From NCBI GenBank assembly GCA_010015805.1, contig ML978123.1:1426001-1490000 (forward strand): a DNA stretch of 64,000 bases, read 5' to 3'. The notes under the pieces are model-generated. The model saw only the letters and a list, made by a program, of their open reading frames with translations, was not told the origin of the DNA and did no database searches. Positions within the stretch are counted from its first letter, which is position 1. Every line of letters starts with the position of its first letter. This DNA is from Rhizodiscina lignyota. Its lineage: Eukaryota. This document shows positions 8,001-23,919 of the stretch, piece after piece. The position numbers were made by a program, and so were the translations under genes.

Positions 8001-11000
8001 TCATGATTCATCGCTGTCATTCGTCTTACCAGCCCCTATAAGCCGCACATCTTCAGCTCCCGCGACCCTATCGATCTCCGTCGAGATCGCGAGCACCCAT
8101 CGATCCCTCTCCGCACGACTCCTAGCCTTGAACACAATGCTTCTGCCCTTTACGCCCAATTGACTGACGTGCCTAAGCCTTGCGCGAGTACCTGTCTCAC
8201 CTTCTCTTTCTGCTGCCTCGCTGTCTCTGCGCTGCTTGTTCTTGCCGACTGTATGAGACGTCTCAGGCGGCACGCCTGCGTCTTCCCCAGCTCTGGCCGC
8301 GAGCGCTTTGACGGCGCCACTGCCAGGAACGCGGAGCCACTCTTTCTTGCGCTGGTACCACAAGACGAAAGTGCACATAATGTCCTCATCGCTGACTCGC
8401 CAACCGTCGTCGGCGTACCATCTGTGAAGTCCACTTCTGCCCGGCCGATTGCTGTCAAATGTCTTGTTCGTGTACAGCAGATCGTTCTCAGTCAGCAGAC
8501 CTGAATACAGATAGCATTCGGAGAGATCGAGATCGAGGGCACGTTCACGTTCGTGGTGAATAGTTGGGATGTCCTTGCCCGTGCGAGTGCGGAGAGTAGG
8601 TGAGAAGATGAGTACATGACCGGGAACAAGGAGGACTGAGGTCAGAGTGAACGTGGAATGGAGTCGAGGCTTGCGATATAGCTGTCCGGACATATGGATC
8701 GTGCGACAACAAGAGATTCCGCACATATTGTAGAGCAGCGGACTCGCATAGGTCTGCGTGACTTCCCACTTCTTCGCAAACTGGCCCATGGTCGCCTCGG
8801 CGTCCTCATCGATTCCGAGCTCTTCAATGTTCTGTTTGCGGACAGACTTGAGCATATCCATCTCGCCAACAGTGCGATGTTTCCAGTAGCGAACGAGCTC
8901 TCGAAGTCTCCGCTTCCACTCTTTCTTAGTGGTCTTATCGAACGCTTGAAGGCGGATAACAAGACTATTGCTCAGGACCAGTTCGAATGTTCGCTCGTCA
9001 TCCAAACTTTCGGTCGCCCCGTCGTCTGCCATGGTATCGGGGACATCCTCATCATAGTCAACGTCTGAGCCTTCATCTATGTTCTCATCGGTCGGAGTTG
9101 CTCCTCGTTTGATGTTCCGAACTTTTCTGACGTTGCAAAGATCAATATACCCGTCACACTCGAGAATGATATTTAATCTGCGTTCTGCTTCGTCATGTGC
9201 GTCCTCATCGTGCTCCCGAATCAGGCCCAAGTCATGCTGTCTGTTTCCGAGCCAAGTAATGGCACCATCCCGTACGGGGTATGGATTGACAGCGTAAATC
9301 AAGGGCATCTTTTCCGCAATTTGTCGTGCATTAGGTGTATTGGAACTTTCAGTGATCGGTAGCTTAGGCGGCGGAGGAGGATATGCTTTTGCAGGCCTGG
9401 AGAAGACGAGGAATTGATCGTGGGTGGAGAAATATAATCTTTTGTAGAAAAGCTTTCCCATTTTCTGATGTGCACCCTTCTGCGATGTCAGTCGGATCAG
9501 AAAGCCTTCAACTGGAGCCGGCTCTGTCAAAGATTTCCCATGGCGAGTCGTTGCCGTTGTCGGCGAATGAGTCTTCGGCCGCATCTCAAGTTCATGCGAT
9601 TTCTGCATTGCGATGGTGCCATACATCTTACGCTCGTTGGCGCCATGAATCCATTCGAGACGATCATAGCGCTTCCAAGCCAATCCGATTCTGTCGTTTT
9701 TTGTCCAAATATCCAGAATCTCCGCCCAAGCTGGATCTTTCCTCAACATCTCGCTGCAGCGTTGAATGATTCTGCTGGAGACAGCCTGCTCTTCGTCCAT
9801 CGTCTTCTTAAGAGCATTCACATCTATCTCGCCGTCTACTGAAAAGTCTTGAGATGCCTCAATTTCCTTGAACGGATTCTTAAGACGAAGCGTCACACTC
9901 AGATCTGGGACCACGACTTGCAATTCTCTGGTCCGGCGCCAGCCGAGGATATTTCGTAGGAAGGTGTACCACTCCACAGCATTTGCGCTTGATCGTGCAC
10001 GCAGCACGTAGATTGTAGTGCCGCGTGAATAAGGAACCCAAATTACCACTGACTTGTCCAGAGAAGAAAAGAGGTTGACATGTGATGTCTTCTTACTGAG
10101 AGGTATCTCGTACTTCGTGCGCTTCTTCGTGTTGGGATCCTGGATTATAGGGATGACCTGTACAACTCTGTTAGCTTGCATCATCTCCTACAACAAAAAT
10201 GCCCAAAAAATATCTTACTCTTGTTTTGTACATTTCCAACAGAAAATCCGAGTCATCATCATTGCTTTCTCTGCAAACCACCATAAACTCTCTCCACTTC
10301 TCTGAAACCCGGCTTATCACACCAAGGCTACCATTTTCATCGTAATCGTCTGGCAGATGCTTGTCAGCGCTAACATCGACACGCACGAGCATCTTCTCCA
10401 TCTTGATAATCCGGCCCTTTTTGCGTCTGCCTTTCAGAAAATCAGATGCAGAACGCTGCAGATTCATTTGAGTGACTTTGGCCATGTGAAGCAGTTCAGC
10501 TCTGCGAGAATCTTCGGGGACGGCAAAGGAGACCAAGACACTCCTCCGTCTTTCATGATCTCCATCAGCTGGGGCGACATCGTGCAGAGGCGTGCTGGCA
10601 GGCTCTGATGGTTTCACCATCTTCGACAGTATATTCCCAGAATTCGACCGGGAGGGCAGTTCCTCTTCGGCCACATTCTCTGCAGGAGTAGGATCTTTGT
10701 GGTCAAGCAAGGATTTGGTTGACCCTGCACCTGTTCCATTGTCAACAGTGGAACTGCCAACACCCATTTGACTCTCTGTCATTGATTCTATTCGAGATGA
10801 CCCTCCGCCCGTCGTGCCTTCGGTAGTGCTATTTCTTGGCGGCATCCCGAGACCCGTTGATGTCCTCTCACTGTCCTTTCCTGTGGGCTGTTCCGACTCT
10901 CTGGCACCTTCAGAGACCTCACGAGACTCTTCGGCTCCATCCAGTCCAGGAGAGCTTGATTGCATGCTCAGCCTTGGTGTATCCTCATTAAGAGGATGTG

Positions 11001-11484
11001 CGCCCTCCTGTACCTCATCTGACCCATCGCGTTGCCGATCAACTTGTCGGACATCCTTATTCGGATTGGACGATCGCGCAACCTCAACCTCTCCCGTCAC
11101 GTTTGCCTCTTGCTCGCCCTCTTCTTCATCTTCCTCGTTCAGTATATCATCGGGCTGTCGAAAGGTTTGGTGATATGTAGCCGACGTGCTTGGTCCTTCC
11201 AAGCCCGACAATCGACGTTGCGTCGAGACATTGGGGTCGGCGTGGAATGTAGCAGCACGGGAGGAGTAGTTGAGGTGGAGGTGGTGCTTGTACCAATCGC
11301 GGCGGTGGCTTTTCAGCCAGCCTTCTGGAATTGGGCCGATGAAACAGCGACGAGATGTTATGTATAGGTGCTCAGGATTCGCATGGGACAACCGCTGCGC
11401 AGTATAGGAATATGGGTCGAGGGAGGCATGCTGGCTGCTCAGCCGCTGGGATTCTGGAATTCGCGTCTCCGCGTCTTGCGTCAT
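8001..11484 (-). CDS. SPO71: Spo71/Mug56-like PH-domain sporulation (prospore membrane) protein; 2 exons
   Basis: N-terminal SYTAQRL...TSRRCFIGPIPEGWL, WKRYDRLEWIHG, PVEGFLIRLT, CGISCCRTIHMSGQLYRK and C-terminal SIVFKARSRAERDRWV. One intron at ~10167-10217. Confidence 0.88.
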
Positions 11485-12136
11485 TGACGCGGCGCGGGTG
11501 GGTGGAATGGAGTGTGAAATTAAGAAACTACGATGAGGACTCAGACCAAATGCATATTAAATAAACAACAATAGGACCGCTAGCAATGCATGAACCGTAC
11601 AAATTGAAGAGGTGAGGCAGCAGGTGCGAGGCAAAGGGCGGGATGGAAGTGCTGCTCAGTTTAATTACCTAGCCACATCGAACTTGCAAATGAGCTAGGT
11701 GCCTATCCTAGGTGCAGTCCCGGCCGATCGTGACGCACACGCGAGGAAAAGCTTGGCGGGAATTGTCCATATGATCGTTATCTGGAATGCAGAGTAAGCT
11801 GTCGATTCCATTTTAAACTCTATCGTTTCAGGTCAATCTCGCACTGTCAGACCCCAATGTACAACGAGCTTGCGTTAAGGTTCAACCAGATTCCATTCAC
11901 CACCATGTGCATTAAAGATCTACTATGCTCTTTTCGGCCGATTGGGCGCCAAAGATGCTCAGCCACTGCAGCCTCAAACCTAGGGCAATATAAGAGATTG
12001 TGGCTTTAATGCTGACCAAGTTGCGCCGAATCCTGCATCAGGACCTCAAAGCTAAAAAGCAATGCGTTCCGCAGGCGTAGAAGAGATCCTAAAATGAAAC
12101 TGAATTTCAATTTGACATTCTACAATCTCCACCATA

Positions 12137-14180
12137 ATGACCGATCCGCTGTCCGTGACTTCTGGAGTTGCGGGGCTGATTGCTCTGGTTGCCACGACTA
12201 CCCAGAGCCTAATAACCATAATCAGTGATCTTCGAGACGCACCGGCAGATATTCAAGATGTGAACCATGATGTCCACGCCTTGAGCTCGCTAATCAGAAC
12301 GACGGACGACTTATATCAGGTGTATGGGCTGAAAGCTGACGATGCTGCGTTGACGGACACTTTCAACGAATGTTTGAGTGGATGTTTACGTCCAATGAAA
12401 GATTTGGAGAAGATATTGCAGCGATTTTCAGGTACGGAGCGTGGAGGTGGCAGAAGAAGCCCCATGAGAGTTATGATGTGGACGATGAGAAAAGGAGAGA
12501 TTCGTGGTCTGAGAGACAGGTTGCGTGACAGCAAGGCTAGTTTGACGCTCGCGGTCAGTGTCTTCAATGGGTGAGTCTGTGCTCCATACAATGACGATAA
12601 CGACTGACAGCTCTTAGTCACGTATCTGGGAAAGGTCAGGATGAAATTAAGCGGGACATTCGCACCGGATACGAGGAACTGCTTCGCGAATTCTCAAGTC
12701 TGCAGATCGGAATTCGAATACGTGATCGGCTAGAAGGCGACGTCACGAGTATCTCTGGTCGCCGTGCCTCTCTATCCAACAATACGGATGCTGGAATTCC
12801 GATGCAGAAGTTCCTTGCCACGGGTGATGAGTGGGAGAATGTTTCTGCAATAGAAGGCACTGTACCTACGGATGCCCTGTGAGTCCTCTCTGCTACTGCT
12901 TGGAGCCATGCTGACCGTGTCCCAGAACTGCAGATGATGGCTTCACGATGATTGAGTCGCCAACTGATAGAGAGTTTAAGCCACCGACTGTTGAGCCGAA
13001 CGAAGCGTCGTTATTGCAGGCAGTATCGAGCGGCAATACGAAGAGAATCACCCAATTACTGGAAGCTGATGAGTCAAATGATCTGACCTCCGAGAGGACT
13101 CCAGAAGGACTGAGCGCGTTACATGTTTGCGTAGAACTCAACGATTGCGCTACCACAGAACTGTTACTAAAGCACGGAATGAACATGAACCTGAGAGACA
13201 AACGCCGGAGAACGCCTTTCATGTTAGCTATTGATCTTCACTCTGTTGAAGTTGCATGCCTGCTCATTGAGCGTGGTTGTGCGCTCGGCACATTCACTAC
13301 TGATGCTCCAGAAGGCCTGAAGACCGAGGAGTATGGCGACGATTATCATCGCATGCTCACGTCTCTATCAACGAGACTTAAGGGATCCGCAAGGGGTCCG
13401 TTCTTACTCCATCGCGCTATTCAGCAGGGCCAAACTCATTACCTCAAGGTTCTTGTGGATGCAGGGTTTGACGTTAATGAAAGAGACGAAGAAGGTGCGC
13501 TTCATCATTCCCATTTTCTGTCGTGCTCGCTGTACTGACTGGATGCAGGAACGGCACCATTGCACCATGCAATTGTGAGGGGAAATATGGACGCTGCAAA
13601 GGCCCTCGTAGAGGCATCCGCCGATGTGAACTGTTTCCTTGCGGAAGGACCACACCCTACTTTGGCACCAGCACGAGACCGAGACTACACTCCTCTGCTC
13701 CTTGCGGCCGCCGCTCGCTCCGATGCGAAAATGGTGCGTTATCTCATCAGTCACGGCGCCGATCCCAACTTCGTGCTGCCAAAGCACCATGATATTGTTC
13801 TTCAATGCGTCTGCGCATACGACGCTTCTATCGGCGCAGCTCTCATCGAAGGCGGCACAAATGTGAACCATCAGTCCGAAGGTGGACACACGCCGCTTTA
13901 TTGGGCGTGTGTATGCCGCAACGTACCGCTGTTGAAGTTGATTCTACAACAACCGGATGTCAATATCAACGTCCAAACGTACGCGGGAGAGATGACGGCG
14001 GCTCACGCTTGCGTCCAGTTTGATCGCAAGGGGCCGCTGAGAGTATTGCTGCAGCACAAGCCTGATCTGACTATAGTCGATGCAGAAGGTTTGACGGCGT
14101 TAGATGTAGCTGAAGGGATGGGAAGGTCGGATATGATTGATATGCTGAGGGCTGCAGAGAGGGCCGCAAGGGCAAGCTAG
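12137..14180 (+). CDS. Ankyrin-repeat protein with an N-terminal fungal STAND-type (HeLo-like/SesA-like) helical domain; 4 exons
   Basis: MTDPLSVTSGVAGLIAL...DLRDAPADIQ...LRDSKASLTLA N-terminal domain. Ankyrin motifs GLSALHVC, RTPFMLA, APLHHA, YTPLLLA, HTPLYWA and LTALDVA. GT-AG introns near 12571, 12879 and 13495. Confidence 0.82.
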
Positions 14181-15925
14181 ATGGTCGCTGAACGTCAATA
14201 GACTCTCTGTACAACCATTTTCACTACCCGAACGATTAGTTGATGTAGTTTTTGTATTTTCTACACAAGTATATTCGTATCGGCCGCCCTTGATTCCTAC
14301 GGTTCGTTGCACTTTCTGCAGAACCGTTTTTATCAGCTAGCGCCTGTTGGTCAAAGCATTGGAAACTCTGATGTGGAGCCCGATACTCTTGGGTGCCGAC
14401 GCTTTCAAGGAAACTAGACTGTGAGACAATGAGCCTTTTGTTACTTTTCCGAAACCAGGAGCGCTTCTTCGTTCTGCCGAAATCTTTCTTCCATAGCATC
14501 TTGGAGTTAAGTTGATATCGTTATGGCTAATAACAGGAGCTTCTGTCTTACATAACTGGCGCGGCGAGCGATGGGGGTGTGGGAGGGTGTGGGAGGGTGA
14601 TGGATGAAGCAGGGAACGAAGCTCATCATAGCTTTAACCTGCTCAAGAGTAACGTGGTATTTCTCCGGTATGCCGGCCGAAAATCATGCGCCTCGGCCAG
14701 CCAGCACTGCACGCTCCTCTTTGAGAGGAGCTGTCCATCTGGTGGTGACACCCAGAATGAAACGCGATTTCGGCGGAATACTGTTTCACAATCAGCAATG
14801 TAAGCAAAGAGCAATCATTGAGCCTTCAAGAACCTGATCGAGCCGTTCACGTTGGCTGTTAGCTAACCCTAATCATCCTCGAGAAGCGCAAGAGCTCTTC
14901 GAGACTTCGATTGATCGATTGCGGTGAGAAGACTGTCTAGCGAGACCGAGCTCCTCTCCGTAAACCCATCACGAGCCACTTCCTTGAGCCCATCTACAAT
15001 GTCTAATTACCTGATCACAGGCTCGCGTCTGGTGAGAACAAATTTCTCTCACAATCCATCGCACCGAATTCGACCGCCCGAACTGATCCCCAGTCCTCTC
15101 GAGTCTCAACAGAAGAATACTCGGAGCAAGTAGAGGTATAACAACAGGTCGAGGAGGATGTAGAGTGTAGAGACAGGAGTCTTGGAAGCGTCTGAAGATA
15201 CACCTCGGCAGATGTTCGTGGATGTTCGCAGGCTGTAGCGTATTGTCCTTGATAAAAATTTGGTCCATGGCTGATCCCTGAGGCGTCTCGGACACGCGCA
15301 TTTCTTGAGTCTTTTCGTTTATTTTCAAAACCAAAAGATTGAGACTAGCTAGATAGCCGACTTCAGATAGGGAATATGGAACCAAATGTGAAATTTCACC
15401 TAATGCGCCTAAGACTGCACACCGTCTTCTTTAACAAAATTAGATCCTAAATCTCAGCTCTCCGCCCTCCCTCTGAGCGTGAGATGTAGCTGAACCTGTC
15501 AGTGAAAAGGCGGAGTCGATGCGCGTTGTAGACGCTACTGGCATGCCGAATCCTGCTCGATTGCCGGACTCAACATTTGATCTACTTGTCTTCTCTTGTC
15601 AGAAAAGGCTTCGAGCCAGAACGCTGTAAACGCTCATAGCGCTCAGATGGTCGGAATGTGCGTCGCAGGCTGGCTCGCCATAGTGGCCGCCGAACCGGGG
15701 AGGCGCGCCACCTCATTCTGCGACCGTGCCCGTAGAGACGCCTCACGCCTCCACGCTGCTCGCGACACCAAAGAAGTGCTATAAATCTGCCAATATCTGA
15801 CCGACATCATTGAGACTCGCGCATTTTAGGACTTGTTTTCTGCTGGCCGCTCCGGCGTTGGTGCTGTGAGCAAAATAAAATAAAATAGCAACACCTCTAA
15901 TTGCAAAAATATGCTGGTCGTGCTG

Positions 15926-15936
15926 GGAATTGAACC
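15926..15936 (-). promoter_or_regulatory. Pol III B box (TFIIIC site), downstream of the terminators
   Basis: GGTTCAATTCC fits the GGTTCRANTCC consensus. Confidence 0.6.
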
Positions 15937-15954
15937 TGGGCGGTAGCAGTGTCG

Positions 15955-15977
15955 AAAAAAAAATCCGCCAAAAAAAA
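15955..15977 (-). terminator. Tandem oligo-T Pol III terminators (T8, T9)
   Basis: A8 at 15970-15977 and A9 at 15955-15963 on the + strand. Confidence 0.55.
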
Positions 15978-16190
15978 CTTGTGGCCAGTGACCTCTTCCG
16001 TTTGATCTCTGTAATGGGACATGGGACATATGATGACTGCAAGCAGTAATAAGTGTAGACATCATAAGGGGGACATTGGGTACATACGGGCGGCCTGCCG
16101 AAGAGCGAAGCCTATTACGGGCGTTCGGTTTGATCGGAAGTAATAAATACGGAGCTCCCCAACTGAGCCATTCGCGCTTCGGCATTGGCA
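15970..16190 (-). ncRNA. Candidate RNA polymerase III-transcribed structured ncRNA (~210 nt), family unidentified
   Basis: On the minus strand: TATATATTAAA at 16215-16205, A box TGGCTCAGTTGG at 16170-16159, T8 at 15977-15970, T9 at 15963-15955 and B box GGTTCAATTCC at 15936-15926. The 5' and 3' halves form nested complementary stems. Confidence 0.6.
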
Positions 16191-16215
16191 ATCAAAACTC
16201 AGAGTTTAATATATA
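16159..16215 (-). promoter_or_regulatory. Pol III TATA element plus A box
   Basis: TATATATTAAA lies ~45 nt upstream of TGGCTCAGTTGG (TRGCNNARYNNG consensus). The spacing fits a start near 16186-16190. Confidence 0.55.
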
Positions 16216-16605
16216 GCCATAGATCCCAAGCCCCCCCCCCTCCAACGGAGCATTTTCCCACACCATTACCAATAAATCCCGGTAATAATGCGTTTGATTT
16301 CGCGTCCTACTCTAATAGGATTATCCTTAAGCATCCAGATAAATCATTTATGCGCTGTTCCGGGGCCTAATTCCCTTCTGTCCTTCTACAAAGTTAGTAC
16401 ATCTTGAGCGACGCTCAGGGCGGGTAACCTTCGGCGGTCAATCGCTCAAGGATGCAGTCTGCAGCACAGTGCACGCATCCAGTTTTTTTGCTGCTCCACT
16501 GCGGCCGCGGCGAGTATGCATGCTATGTTGTAGTTGACCTTATGCATGATTGCTCTTGACGTGCGGTGAGTAGTTAGTATTGGTGGGAGATACAGTCCAT
16601 TCAAT

Positions 16606-16812
16606 CTACTCGGAGATCGCTGTCGATGGTATCGCCGTGGGATGAATGTAGAGAGGAAATATCGACTTCGAGCCGAAGGAGTCGTAGAGACTTTTAATGA
16701 AGACTTCTTTGAGCAGGAGACTGCGTTGCTCAGCTGCAGCCTTGATCGGCAGAGCATGGACGTTGTCGCAGTCCGCAAGCCGAACTCCTGCTCTTTACAA
16801 AAGAGACGACAT
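16606..16812 (-). pseudogene. Possible decayed GNAT (diamine acetyltransferase-like) N-terminus
   Basis: MSSLL*RAGVRLADCDNVHALPIKAAAEQRSLLLKEVFIKSLYDSFG, with an in-frame TAA at codon 6. The resemblance was judged by eye only. Confidence 0.22.
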
Positions 16813-18640
16813 GAGAAGGACAAATATATAAAGGTGAGAACTTCGATATGGAAAGACAGAAGGGCAGTTGATATATTAAAGACGTCTCATTGGGGTTGCG
16901 GCAGGTCAGTGCATGTGTATGTAACTCAGGGGAAAGGACGACGCTGACCAACACTACCTCGCATGGGCGAGGCTTCGCAGACAAGAATGTGAAATACGAA
17001 AGACGGCATAGCTGGACTATGGAGTCAAACGCAAGAGACGAGATAGAGAGCTCTGCTAGATGAACAGACTATATATCAAGACAGGGGCAGGGAAGTTATG
17101 TCGTAGTCTCCTGTATACACGGACAGCATTTGAGGGGAACAGGCGATGGGCTTTAGCAGAGACTTGCTAATGAATGGAATGACAATACGAAGTAATTACC
17201 TTGGAAATCGAGATCAACGTAGCTTGCTCCGAGAGAAAAATCACTAGAATAGTGATGAAGACAGGCTCTAGGAGAAACATTGGTCTTTCCAGACCATAGC
17301 CCAGAACTTGGTCAATATCGTGGCCTATATTGGTCTCCCGGAGCTGTCAACCTTGCCACGGCAGTCATTGTTCTTAGCAGCGAACATGGCCTTCGGAATG
17401 TGAACCCAGATGGCCATGACAGGAACAGGATGTCCACACGTACCCAGAGTCAAGGCATTGTGCCCATTGCAAACTGGCATGTCCACCCTGAGCATCAGCT
17501 CTGCAAACATTGACTTTTCGTCCGTGAGGAACGTATGCGGTGAGATGGGTGGTTGTGCTCTGTCAAAGTTGCAGTCTTTGTGTCCGTGGTCCAAGTGCCT
17601 CACCTGTTGTCAGTTACGGTGTAGGTCTCCAACGGCAAAACGGATTGTCTGTAAGTGGTGGAGCTGAAACAGCATTGTGACACCAGCGATCTTTGACTTA
17701 TTGCTGGGCTTCTGGCTGACGAAGCCGCTATTAGCAGGTAGGATAACTGGCCAATTGGTATCTCCTGCAGGAGACTGGCAAAAGTACTCGGGCTCCTCCT
17801 CGGAAGTTCTGAGATTGTTTCGAGGTTCTCCCGAACCTAGTGTGCGCAGTGAGATCGAGGCACAGATGAAGAACACCGAAGAGCTGACCGAGAACGGGGC
17901 GATAAGGATGATGATGCCGACGAAGGAAGTGATGAGAGCAGCATTGCAAGTTTGCCGAAGACTCTTGTCTGATCTGTGACTGTGAGAAATTGTGAGTAAG
18001 CGAGTTGTGGTGTATGTCGGAAAGATCACGCAGATTGCAAAGCTGTGGGCAAGGGCGCGCATTCGGCTTTCGATGCTCAAGCCTCAACAAAAGGATTGGC
18101 GATGACAACATGGGAGTGACTGGGCTTAGAGCCTATTTCGTGCTGGGGTTGCGGCAGTTGCGCCAGCTTCATCGACGGAGATTGAGGAAACAATGGCTGT
18201 GGGCGCGGAAGACCGAGAAACGAACCCAAGGCAGTACGCGTCACCGAAGAGGTGGGCAGAGGTGAGATTAGCGATAGAGACGTTGTACAACTGGTCGGCA
18301 GGCGCGACTGGTCGGGAGTGCGAGCGCGTTCATTTGCAATGCATGCATGGTGTGGTGAGGAGAGGGAATGCGGTGGGGGAAAGTGATGACTCGAAAGGAC
18401 ACAAGTGTAGTTCAAACAAGGTTTGAGGCTTCTGCATCGGAGAAATATGTTTGCTTTTGTGGGGCTTGCTAAAGTGCGATGGCTTGGGTGGCTAGTGCGG
18501 CCAACATCGTGCCTTCCATACCTAGCGGTATGTACACAGACCCCTTGCATCAGCACAGCATCTCCTACATCGTCTTTGAATCAACTACAGCGCTTGAGAA
18601 CCTTGAAATGTCGCATCTTGTTGACCGCTGACGAGAAATA

Positions 18641-20863: not shown

Positions 20864-23689
20864 ATATGCCTCTCTCAAATTCCAGTCGCCAAATGAACTG
20901 CAATCTCTTATTGCTCGAAGTCCGATCGTCCCAAGCTCTTACTGTATTTCTGCTTCAATAACATCTTGTTTCCTTGCGTCTTCTTGTATTTATTGAGGCC
21001 ATGGAGCGTCTCGTCTCGTCTCATTGTTCTGTTTTCACTTGTCACTTTCAATTCATGCATCGTATAACCATTTCAGAGTTTTCGTCTTGCCTTTTCGAGC
21101 TGAGGTTCCGCGAATGTTATCCGGAGCTCGGCGTCTCAATCTACAGTACTGTTTAGATGGGTCCCTGGTTGACTACCGAATCATGAGAGACAAGTCTGGC
21201 ATGCCGCGTCCTTCCCAGTTTCGCGACCGAGGGGCACAATTGAACTGAGCTAGTCCGTACTCACGCTTATGGCGTGAACACGATAGTGGTCGACAATCCT
21301 GTACCTCCATACGGTTCTCAGTGTTACTGGGAGGTCGTGCTCTTAGTCAGGAGCTTGACGGCGTTTGATTGTGGCCTTTTACCTCGCCCTCGGAGAGTGT
21401 TCGCTCGGATTGGCCCTGTCCACTATGACTATCGGCATCCAAGTTTATGAGTATATCCTGTTGGATTTCAAAGCTCCGAAACCAGGAGCCAGTACAGACC
21501 ACTGGCATATCACCCATCTGAGGCACAGTCTGCCTTGAACCGGTCTGGGGTTTGGGATCGTTGTTTTCCCTTAGGACACTTCCGGTATGGGCCGTCTACC
21601 TGTATGTTTAACTGTTCGGCCTCCGAGTAGTCCAAACGTCTGGTCAGTGTATCTTGCTATCTCTTGACATTGGTAGCCGGTCCTCCGTCCCATTGTTGCA
21701 ACCGAGTGGCACGCCAGCGGAAGGGATATCTCAGTTTCCAATGCTTGTCCTGCTCGGCCGCGTCTGTGATCTTTCCGAAATATGCTGTTCACCGATCGGG
21801 TTCCTCCTGACATCGAAAGGACAACGTATCGGAATGGTGATGTTTGGCTGGGCTGAGCTCCACTAGCGCCATCCTTTCTTCTCACTATTAGCTCAATCTT
21901 TGCACATGGTCAACGGGCAACGTATCATCCATTTGTTGTGCCAGGCTAGGCCCTTTGGGTAACATCCCACGGCACATGCTCCCTGCTATATGTGGTGTGT
22001 GAGCAAGCTCGTCTTTCGTTCCGTCGCGATTCGCGACGATGGACGGCCGAGCTTGTTCCTCAGCTACTGATTTCTAGGCTGCTGTAATTCGTAAGTGTTG
22101 CTCTATGCCTCAGCAACCGCGATTGCACCATATTGTTCCCGTCGCGATCGCGCTTTGATAGGGTGTGTCGGATACAAGAGAGACTCGGCGCCGCGTAGAA
22201 GAAGGATCGCGTCGTGGGTATCGAGGCATGGCGATCTCTTTCCTGGCTTCGCCTGGTGGGACTTCAGTTTATGCTAATATCCCTTTGCATCGCCGAGCAT
22301 TGCTAGGCCTTCTGGCAAAGCTTTTGCTTTGGTAACGCTCTTGTTTTGGTCGCGCGACGACAGTGCGGTTCGATAAGGAAGGGAAAAACAGACCGTAAAG
22401 ATCCTCTAACCGATGGAATTAGCCCTCATCTAGAGGTTATTGACCACACACCTGCTTTGGGCAGAACTGCTAGGAAAATCGAAGTTGTCTTAGTTCTGTT
22501 GGAGGTCGTCACCCTCCGCTGGGTCTGTCGTCACTATGCCCAGATTCATGGCGCGCAAAACTATTATGGGCGCCGTTTTCGAGCTGAACAAAGAGTTATG
22601 GTCACTGCACAAGCAGATCCAGTTTTTTGGTTTGTTTGTGGATGATGCTACTGACAAACTGGTCACCGTGTGGCAGCCGGACACCTAAGCGGACCGGTGC
22701 GAAAAGAAGCGTCTGACGAGACGAACGACGTTGGATTTCGAGAATCGTATAGATTGTTGTTGGCAGCGACAGGAATTGCCAGATTATCGAGGAGAACTGC
22801 AGATTGTTTATGCGTGGAAAGTCTTCCCGGAAGTGCGTATTCTGTTTTCTAGCGCAGAGGCGCGCGTATTCTCGTAGCCGCGTACTACCTGCTAATACTC
22901 CTGTCAGATATGTTTTAAGCAAAGGATGCGATGATTCTTTTGGAATGGAAGCATTTCGCACCTCTGGAAGTTGCTAAACTTGACCGTAAATCGAGACTGG
23001 GTAGGTTTTCCTCCAGCTGCCCAAACGCCGGCGCGCCGCCAGCACGCTCACAGCTTCGCCACTCAAATGCCTTACGCAAACGCATTTGGATACCATAAAA
23101 AAGGTATTACTAGGCCACTGAAATGTCAAAGACCACTTCGTATACGCTTCTAGATGGGACGCGTAGAGGCGAGCTCCCTAAGGAGGGCCGACATCAATGT
23201 ATGCCTAAACATCACGACAATTTGCACAAGTGAATTCGCGGCCCTTTCCATTATTTTCGACATCACTAATCTAGCACAACAACTTATGCGAGGCTAATCT
23301 AATCTTAATACATGTCTAGAGAGCTCTTACGACGATTGCCACAACGTAAATGAACGCTGCGGCATGATAATAAACAGTTCAAACCTTAGTCCAAACCGAC
23401 AGTTGTTTTGACGTTTGGTATCTTACATCAGGCTTACTGTTTACAATCGCCTAACATAGTCCGCTACGATCTCAGCATAGCTGCGTAACGAATCAAGCAT
23501 GGCCAAGCATTGGTTCTCGACAGAATCTAATGTGATAGTAATCTACTACGGTAAAGGCAACATACAAATTCAACAGCTCCTCTCATCTCAAATCATCACA
23601 GCAAATATGACACGAAGGATGAACACTAGAGAGCCAGCTTTCTTCGTCAAGCTCCCACTCAAGGCGGAAGGCAAAATGAAAAAGAGCCA

Positions 23690-23882
23690 GATGGTCGCGT
23701 CAGCCGGAGGTAGTACAATACCGGCGACACAGTGGTCGGAAACCAATACCAAAGGCATATGGAATCTTCCCCGGTGCCAAAAATTTTAATAAATGATCTT
23801 AGGGCCGTAGCCCCGTAATCAGAGATTAAACTGATTAAGAACAGATACTACACTTGATCTAAGCCAAACGGCAAAGAGAGCT
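23690..23882 (-). ncRNA. U2: U2 spliceosomal snRNA
   Basis: Reverse complement reads AGCTCTCTTTGCCGTTTGGCTTAGATCAAGTGTAGTATCTGTTCTT (branch-recognition GTAGTA). Stem IIa AATCAG/CTGATT, IIc complement ATTAAA, Sm site AATTTTTGG and a terminal stem-loop IV are all present. Confidence 0.97.
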
Positions 23883-23919
23883 AAGGAAGAGAAGTCAAAG
23901 TTGGGCGAAGAATGGCGAG

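Follow-up and report, generated by a model that had tools for sequence, protein, structure and literature searches.

The window, by which we mean the whole 64,000-nt stretch of Rhizodiscina lignyota DNA analysed here, holds a single Rfam family, U2 snRNA, the gene of which is full length and lies on the minus strand (23689-23884; RF00004, 120.2 bits, E 8.6e-24, model positions 1-192 of 192). The protein-coding surroundings of the element described below were explored in a Pfam scan of 10 ORFs of at least 120 codons. On the minus strand, the overlapping stop-free frames 8001-10187 and 10171-11556 share Spo7_2_N, PH_SPO71 and PH_4 domains and probably represent one SPO71-like sporulation gene (8001-11556), split near 10171-10187 by a short intron or a frame change. 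On the plus strand, two adjacent ankyrin-repeat frames at 12915-14180 (Ank_2 and related Pfam families) are probably parts of one gene, the end of which lies about 1.75 kb from the element. Five of the scanned ORFs, located between 14969 and 20863, gave no Pfam match, and the translations of the stop-free frames that flank the element on the minus strand (14969-15430 and 16446-16886) look non-coding and are likewise without a Pfam match, which places the element in about 3.4 kb (14181-17609) without a recognisable gene. This gap, in which further unannotated transcripts may lie, is presumably long for the usual gene spacing of filamentous fungi. A 121-codon stop-free frame runs through the element itself (15826-16191, minus strand), and none of its six protein candidates reached E<=0.01.

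The features of the element are collected in Table 1. The TATA-like element, the A box, the T8 and T9 runs and the B box were all found on the minus strand where the sequence-only reading had placed them, and both boxes are perfect matches to their consensus. They are the sole A box and the sole B box of the window, and they lie on the same strand, A followed by B. In the yeast SNR6 gene, a TATA element lies upstream, the A box is found within the transcribed region, and the B box occupies the 3' trailer past the terminator (PMC5356446, excerpts). Each component of this layout is present at the locus, namely a TATA element near -30, an internal A box, an oligo-T terminator, and a B box beyond the terminator. 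A run of ten G residues (16231-16240, minus strand), the only G run of at least 8 on that strand in the window, is located 16 nt upstream of the TATA-like element.

Table 1. Positions of the promoter, terminator and tRNA-like features of the element and of its predicted transcript, from 5' to 3' on the minus strand.
Feature	Window positions	Strand	Remarks
TATA-like element TATATATTAAA	16205-16215	-	Upstream of the 5' stem, 31 nt from its base
Predicted Pol III start zone	16184-16189	-	From the tRNA start-site rule and the distance to the TATA element
5' arm of inverted repeat, TGCCGAAGCGCGAA	16171-16184	-	Inner 7 nt correspond to tRNA acceptor positions 1-7
A box TGGCTCAGTTGG	16159-16170	-	First base corresponds to tRNA-like position 8
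D-arm-like hairpin GCTC-AGTTGGG-GAGC	16154-16168	-	D stem perfect
Degenerate internal B-box-like sequence GATCAAACC	16127-16135	-	35 nt after the start of the A box
3' arm of inverted repeat, TTCGCTCTTCGGCA	16096-16109	-	Closes the 89-nt 5' domain
Local hairpin	16029-16066	-	13-nt arms, 85% complementary, 12-nt loop; pair probabilities 0.84-0.95
T8 run, predicted Pol III terminator	15970-15977	-	Implied RNA about 210 nt
T9 run, predicted back-up terminator	15955-15963	-	
Consensus B box GGTTCAATTCC	15926-15936	-	234 nt after the start of the A box, 18 nt after the T9 run
tRNA-3'-end-like tail, CACGACC-A, 5-nt spacer, T5	15905-15922	-	T5 at 15909-15905

The spacing of these features can be compared with that of known Pol III genes. 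In tRNA genes, position +8 of the mature tRNA is where the A box begins, and the transcript starts another 10-12 nt upstream (PMC5356446, excerpts), a rule which would put the start at 16187-16189, 26-28 nt past the first T of the TATA element and immediately ahead of the base of the 14-bp stem formed by the two arms of the inverted repeat. Counted from the first T of the TATA element, the predicted start zone as a whole extends from 26 to 31 nt downstream, and it lies 10-12 nt upstream of tRNA-like position 1 (16177); the same T is 31 nt ahead of the stem base and 38 nt ahead of tRNA-like position 1. At the other end of the putative transcript, a terminator of eight T residues allowed zero read-through in a wild-type S. 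pombe strain, according to excerpts of the same source (PMC5356446). Motif order and spacing, as read from the letters, fit a Pol III unit closely. TFIIIC has been described as elastic with regard to the spacing of the boxes (PMC5356446, excerpts). Yeast tRNA genes, however, have an A-B spacing of 31-93 nt (PMC5356446, excerpts), which the 234 bp found here greatly exceed, and this counts against the reading preferred below.

Taken alone, neither box exceeds the chance level, with one A-box match in the window against 0.73 expected and one B-box match against 0.97 expected, the matches being to general consensus patterns rather than to patterns supplied by a tool. The arrangement was assessed against 2000 dinucleotide-preserving shuffles of the whole window. 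An A box followed within 400 nt by a B box on one strand occurred 0.0055 times per shuffled window, and 0.002 times when a T5 run was required between the boxes; none of the 2000 shuffles contained the pair with a T run and a TATAWA string 25-60 nt upstream. These odds are somewhat overstated because the shuffles ignore the enrichment of T runs and TATA strings in fungal intergenic DNA. TATAWA occurs 17 times on the minus strand of the 64 kb. Runs of at least 8 T number only four in the window on both strands together, and two of them are in this element and on the matching strand. The order of TATA element, internal A box, oligo-T and downstream B box claimed in the sequence-only reading is present and, by the shuffles, non-random. 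That short motifs met by chance, in intergenic DNA rich in AT and T, would be in keeping with the frequency of each box taken singly and with the very many windows scanned, but this account has to face the rarity of the A-B pair and of the full composite in shuffled DNA, as well as the perfect D stem and the exact acceptor register of an inverted repeat that has no equal in the window; its probability is put at next to nil. The combination of motifs is not due to chance, which is not a serious explanation of the locus.

The inverted repeat, a feature absent from the sequence-only reading, consists of two 14-nt arms of which 13 of 14 positions pair; the window contains no other inverted repeat with 13 or more of 14 positions paired and a loop of 40-90 nt. 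The inner end of the stem lies one base before the opening T of the A box, and its inner 7 bp take the place of acceptor positions 1-7, followed by U8-G9. The 89-nt 5' domain has a minimum free energy (MFE) of -29.9 kcal/mol (z -1.67), a modest signal, as 12 of 200 shuffles folded at least as well. Within this domain, the B-box-like sequence GATCAAACC fits the loose core GNTCRANNC and fails the strict B box. At the far end of the element, the B box together with CACGACC-A and T5 has the look of the 3' end of a tRNA gene with its own terminator. When the two tRNA-like halves are brought together, 3 of the 7 acceptor positions and 3 of the 5 T-stem positions pair. The acceptor register, U8-G9, the perfect D arm and the tRNA-3'-end-like tail all argue for tRNA descent, and the locus, judged by these features, seems to descend from a tRNA gene. 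The A box is framed by acceptor-like and D-arm-like sequence, which points to derivation from a tRNA gene rather than to a new class of structural RNA.

The locus is not, however, a tRNA gene that the standard models recognise. ARAGORN called no tRNA gene in the window, nor any when introns of up to 400 nt were allowed at the default threshold, and neither the region, nor one of its halves alone, nor the 5' domain matched the Rfam tRNA model at E<=10. Excision of intervening sequence restored a tRNA in none of 3835 variants at default stringency. A tRNA-Lys with a 207-nt intron was called by ARAGORN at a relaxed threshold only, as one of three calls in 1.2 kb, in the company of evident false positives and with a different 5' end, and was rejected. 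Candidate acceptor partners, the best of which paired at 6 of 7 and 5 of 7 positions, were at the level calculated for chance over about 270 positions and were also set aside.

These results bear on the view that the element is a silent or poised relic of one or two tRNA genes, which may bind TFIIIC in the manner of an ETC site, possibly as a chromatin boundary, and which yields no stable RNA. This view is a rival of real weight, and we regard it as possible although on the unlikely side. It is in line with the tRNA-like pieces at both ends of the element (acceptor and D arm, 16184-16154; B box, 3'-acceptor-like 7-mer and T5, 15936-15905), with the unstructured body documented below, and with the existence in yeast of TFIIIC-only ETC sites and ancient tDNA relics (PMC5356446, excerpts). 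It is harder to reconcile with the pattern of loss, since neutral decay that disrupts four of the seven acceptor pairs and two of the five pairs of the T stem would rarely spare both perfect boxes, the perfect D stem, the TATA element in its correct place and the two strong terminators; the perfect state of the boxes, D stem and TATA next to broken tRNA features argues that factor binding, and not tRNA function, has been kept. The excision variants, none of which restored a tRNA, also speak against it. Moreover, the acceptor-like stem has been lengthened to 14 bp, beyond the length found in a tRNA, which is not an outcome of simple decay.

The sequence-only reading had held that the body is neither U6 nor a tRNA and belongs to no known family, and both Rfam and ARAGORN agree with this: Rfam returned no match to a known family at the locus, with nothing meaningful at E<=10 over 15400-16800 or 16090-16190 and only U2 across the window at E<=0.5. 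The covariance models of SRP RNA, RNase P RNA and RNase MRP RNA gave no match at E<=10 in the region or at E<=0.5 in the window. Several short motifs nevertheless recall such families and have been considered under the hypothesis of a very divergent known Pol III RNA, be it U6, SRP RNA, RNase P/MRP RNA, or a snoRNA preceded by a tRNA-like leader, the arrangement seen in RPR1 and SNR52, the boxes of which sit in the leader (PMC5356446, excerpts). An ACAGAGA heptamer is found at 16012-16006 (minus strand) beneath a promoter layout like that of SNR6, but no AGC occurs downstream of it and the Rfam U6 model is also without a match, so that the RNA is not U6. AUGAUGU occurs at 16065-16059 (minus strand), but neither RUGAUGA nor CUGA is present in 16189-15970, so that the RNA is not a C/D snoRNA. 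ACA is found at 15982-15980, 2 nt before the T8 run; the H/ACA-like alternative raised in the earlier reading nonetheless fails, as the single ANANNA (16008-16003) is so close to the 3' end that a 3' hairpin would have to fit into some 20 nt. The hypothesis of a divergent known family has thereby already been largely refuted and is considered very improbable.

The locus is also single copy. The sequence-only reading had named many dispersed degenerate copies, the mark of a SINE, as a finding that would refute it; none were found. No second copy occurs within the window, and in the one public run that contains the stretch just one of 15,746 contigs matches 14500-17500 at 80% likeness or more, in one uninterrupted piece; that run may be the window's own source, which makes the match informative on copy number only, and copies below 80% identity escape detection. 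A SINE or other dispersed tRNA-derived repeat was ruled out by this single copy (at least 80% likeness). The insertion of a mobile element between the two tRNA-like halves was rejected as well, the terminal repeats or duplications being 8-12-mers at chance level and the locus being single copy. An internal duplication of the 5' domain in the body was not significant (45 of 1000 shuffles under strict and 187 of 1000 under permissive settings). As for shorter repeats, the putative transcript contains three copies of the heptamer ATGTCCC (16076-16070, 16029-16023 and 16022-16016, minus strand), the last two in tandem, and GATCAAACCGAA (16135-16124) recurs as GATCAAACGGAA (16007-15996); none of these is statistically significant as a duplication. 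Exact-match pattern scans of a fungus-poor metagenome collection returned no loci, either for the 17-mer of the A box and D arm followed by a B box at 200-230 nt or for the 19-mer of the 5' core alone. In the literature on fungal Pol III ncRNAs with A and B boxes, there was no fungal case among the matches listed.

The expectation that about 180 nt of structured sequence lies between the promoter and the T runs did not survive folding. Folding of the 205-nt body gave an MFE of -44.4 kcal/mol, where shuffled versions averaged -49.6 (z +1.24) and 180 of 200 equalled or exceeded its stability, and the 3' 118 nt (z +1.29) are, if anything, less structured than random sequence. The four helices proposed in the sequence-only reading are complementary to varying degrees: 15981-15989 with 16162-16171 pairs at 6 of 9 positions ungapped, or over 8 bp given one bulge; 15995-16000 with 16135-16140 at 6 of 6; 16009-16018 with 16111-16120 at 8 of 10; and 16029-16035 with 16060-16066 at 7 of 7. 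In the ensemble of the 214-nt transcript, from which pair probabilities were taken, only the last of these, which is local, stood (0.84-0.95), whereas the three long-range helices had a probability of 0.0. The proposed structure alone amounts to -16.3 kcal/mol and, when enforced, yields -31.4 against an MFE of -48.7, a cost of 17 kcal/mol. On these predictions, the putative transcript shows no sign of a structured RNA body. With regard to the preferred reading, a predicted body stability below that of shuffled sequence and a 5' domain that is only modestly stable count against it.

The folds that do appear, an imperfect 89-nt hairpin formed by the 5' domain overall and a second hairpin downstream (16066-16029), are what might be expected of a Pol III small-RNA precursor of the milRNA type, in which the 5' domain would be cut by enzymes of the RNase P and RNase Z type and the 89-nt or the downstream hairpin would then be diced. 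In Neurospora crassa, milR-4 offers a precedent: Pol III makes a precursor that contains tRNAs, co-transcribed with the milRNA, RNase Z releases the pre-milRNA, and a cluster of T residues lies downstream, as at other N. crassa milR loci and after the present hairpins (PMC3547838, excerpts). The common ground with milR-4 and with the tRNA-miRNA units of MHV68 thus comprises a Pol III unit, a tRNA or tRNA-like moiety, a downstream hairpin and a T cluster (PMC3547838, excerpts). The locus differs from them in its 5' moiety, which neither ARAGORN nor Rfam accepts as a genuine tRNA, so that recognition by RNase Z is uncertain, and the predicted downstream hairpin, with its 13-nt arms, is short. 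A milRNA-like precursor is rated as unlikely.

Together, the sequence features suggest, with a confidence that stays somewhat below even, that the locus is a single-copy, tRNA-gene-derived Pol III transcription unit, in which a split SNR6-like promoter gives rise to an RNA of about 210 nt. In such a unit, TFIIIC would contact the B box through tauB and the A box through tauA, bridging the 234 bp between them, and TFIIIB would be positioned on the TATA element. Pol III would start near 16186 and would terminate in the T8 run, with the T9 run as a back-up. The first 89 nt of the predicted RNA of about 210 nt would form a stem-closed tRNA-like domain, made up of a 14-bp extended acceptor-like stem and the D-arm hairpin, and the remaining 118 nt or so would be weakly structured except for one hairpin. 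The tRNA-like 5' domain may act mainly as a promoter and possibly also as a processing handle. What had been proposed as a possibly undescribed structural or regulatory Pol III RNA retains its promoter layout and loses its structural body, in view of the folding results, the fate of the stems and the tRNA-like context. By comparison with described loci, the RNA would most likely be a lineage-specific, low-abundance product of the ZOD1, iYGR033C and RNA170 kind rather than a conserved structural RNA, and the locus is probably a lineage-specific orphan unit rather than the first of a new class of structured RNAs.

In yeast, the Pol III machinery still occupies ZOD1 and iYGR033C, two tRNA genes of ancient origin, the first of which is transcribed at a low level (PMC5356446, excerpts). 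With RNA170 (ETC5), they are the closest described counterparts of the locus, with which they share a single-copy orphan status, tRNA-type boxes, the lack of a conserved structural RNA and, as it seems, tDNA descent (PMC5356446, excerpts); the locus differs in its boxes, which are 234 bp apart with terminators between them. SNR6 has in common with it the upstream TATA, the A box inside the transcribed region and the B box past the terminator (PMC5356446, excerpts), whereas the putative RNA of the locus is not U6 and its A box lies in a tRNA-like acceptor and D-arm context. RPR1 and SNR52 resemble it in having a promoter-bearing tRNA-like 5' segment followed by an unrelated RNA body (PMC5356446, excerpts). 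They differ from the locus, which has only a degenerate B-like box internally and its consensus B box past the terminator, and the body of which matches neither RNase P RNA nor a C/D snoRNA.

To our knowledge, the fungal Pol III transcriptome outside budding yeast is poorly mapped beyond tRNAs, 5S, U6, SRP and RNase P RNAs. Orphan tDNA-derived loci are raw material for new Pol III RNAs, such as BC1 and the tRNA-linked milRNAs, and for TFIIIC sites that act as chromatin boundaries. If silent and unconserved, the present locus would be a mere curiosity; as a single-copy locus with a complete SNR6-style layout, it would offer a convenient test case for the birth of a gene from a tRNA gene, and its promoter and terminator would make a candidate compact Pol III cassette, with which guide RNAs, for instance, might be expressed in this fungus. 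A bolder reading, which we hold to be doubtful, takes the locus for a lineage-specific Pol III ncRNA gene, newly arisen from a tRNA gene in a filamentous ascomycete and equipped with a U6-style split promoter, the 89-nt tRNA-like minihelix of which would direct cleavage by RNase P- or RNase Z-type enzymes and so set free small RNAs or a functional RNA about 118 nt long. If this is true, fungi would have their own equivalent of BC1 or of the tRNA-miRNA units. Rodent BC1 RNA is the product of a single-copy, tRNA-born Pol III ncRNA gene with a tRNA-like 5' hairpin domain, an upstream TATA, internal A and B boxes that lie close together, and a centre rich in A. The fungal locus resembles it in its single copy, its tRNA-like 5' domain and its TATA element, and BC1 stands apart in its kingdom, its closely spaced boxes and its A-rich centre.
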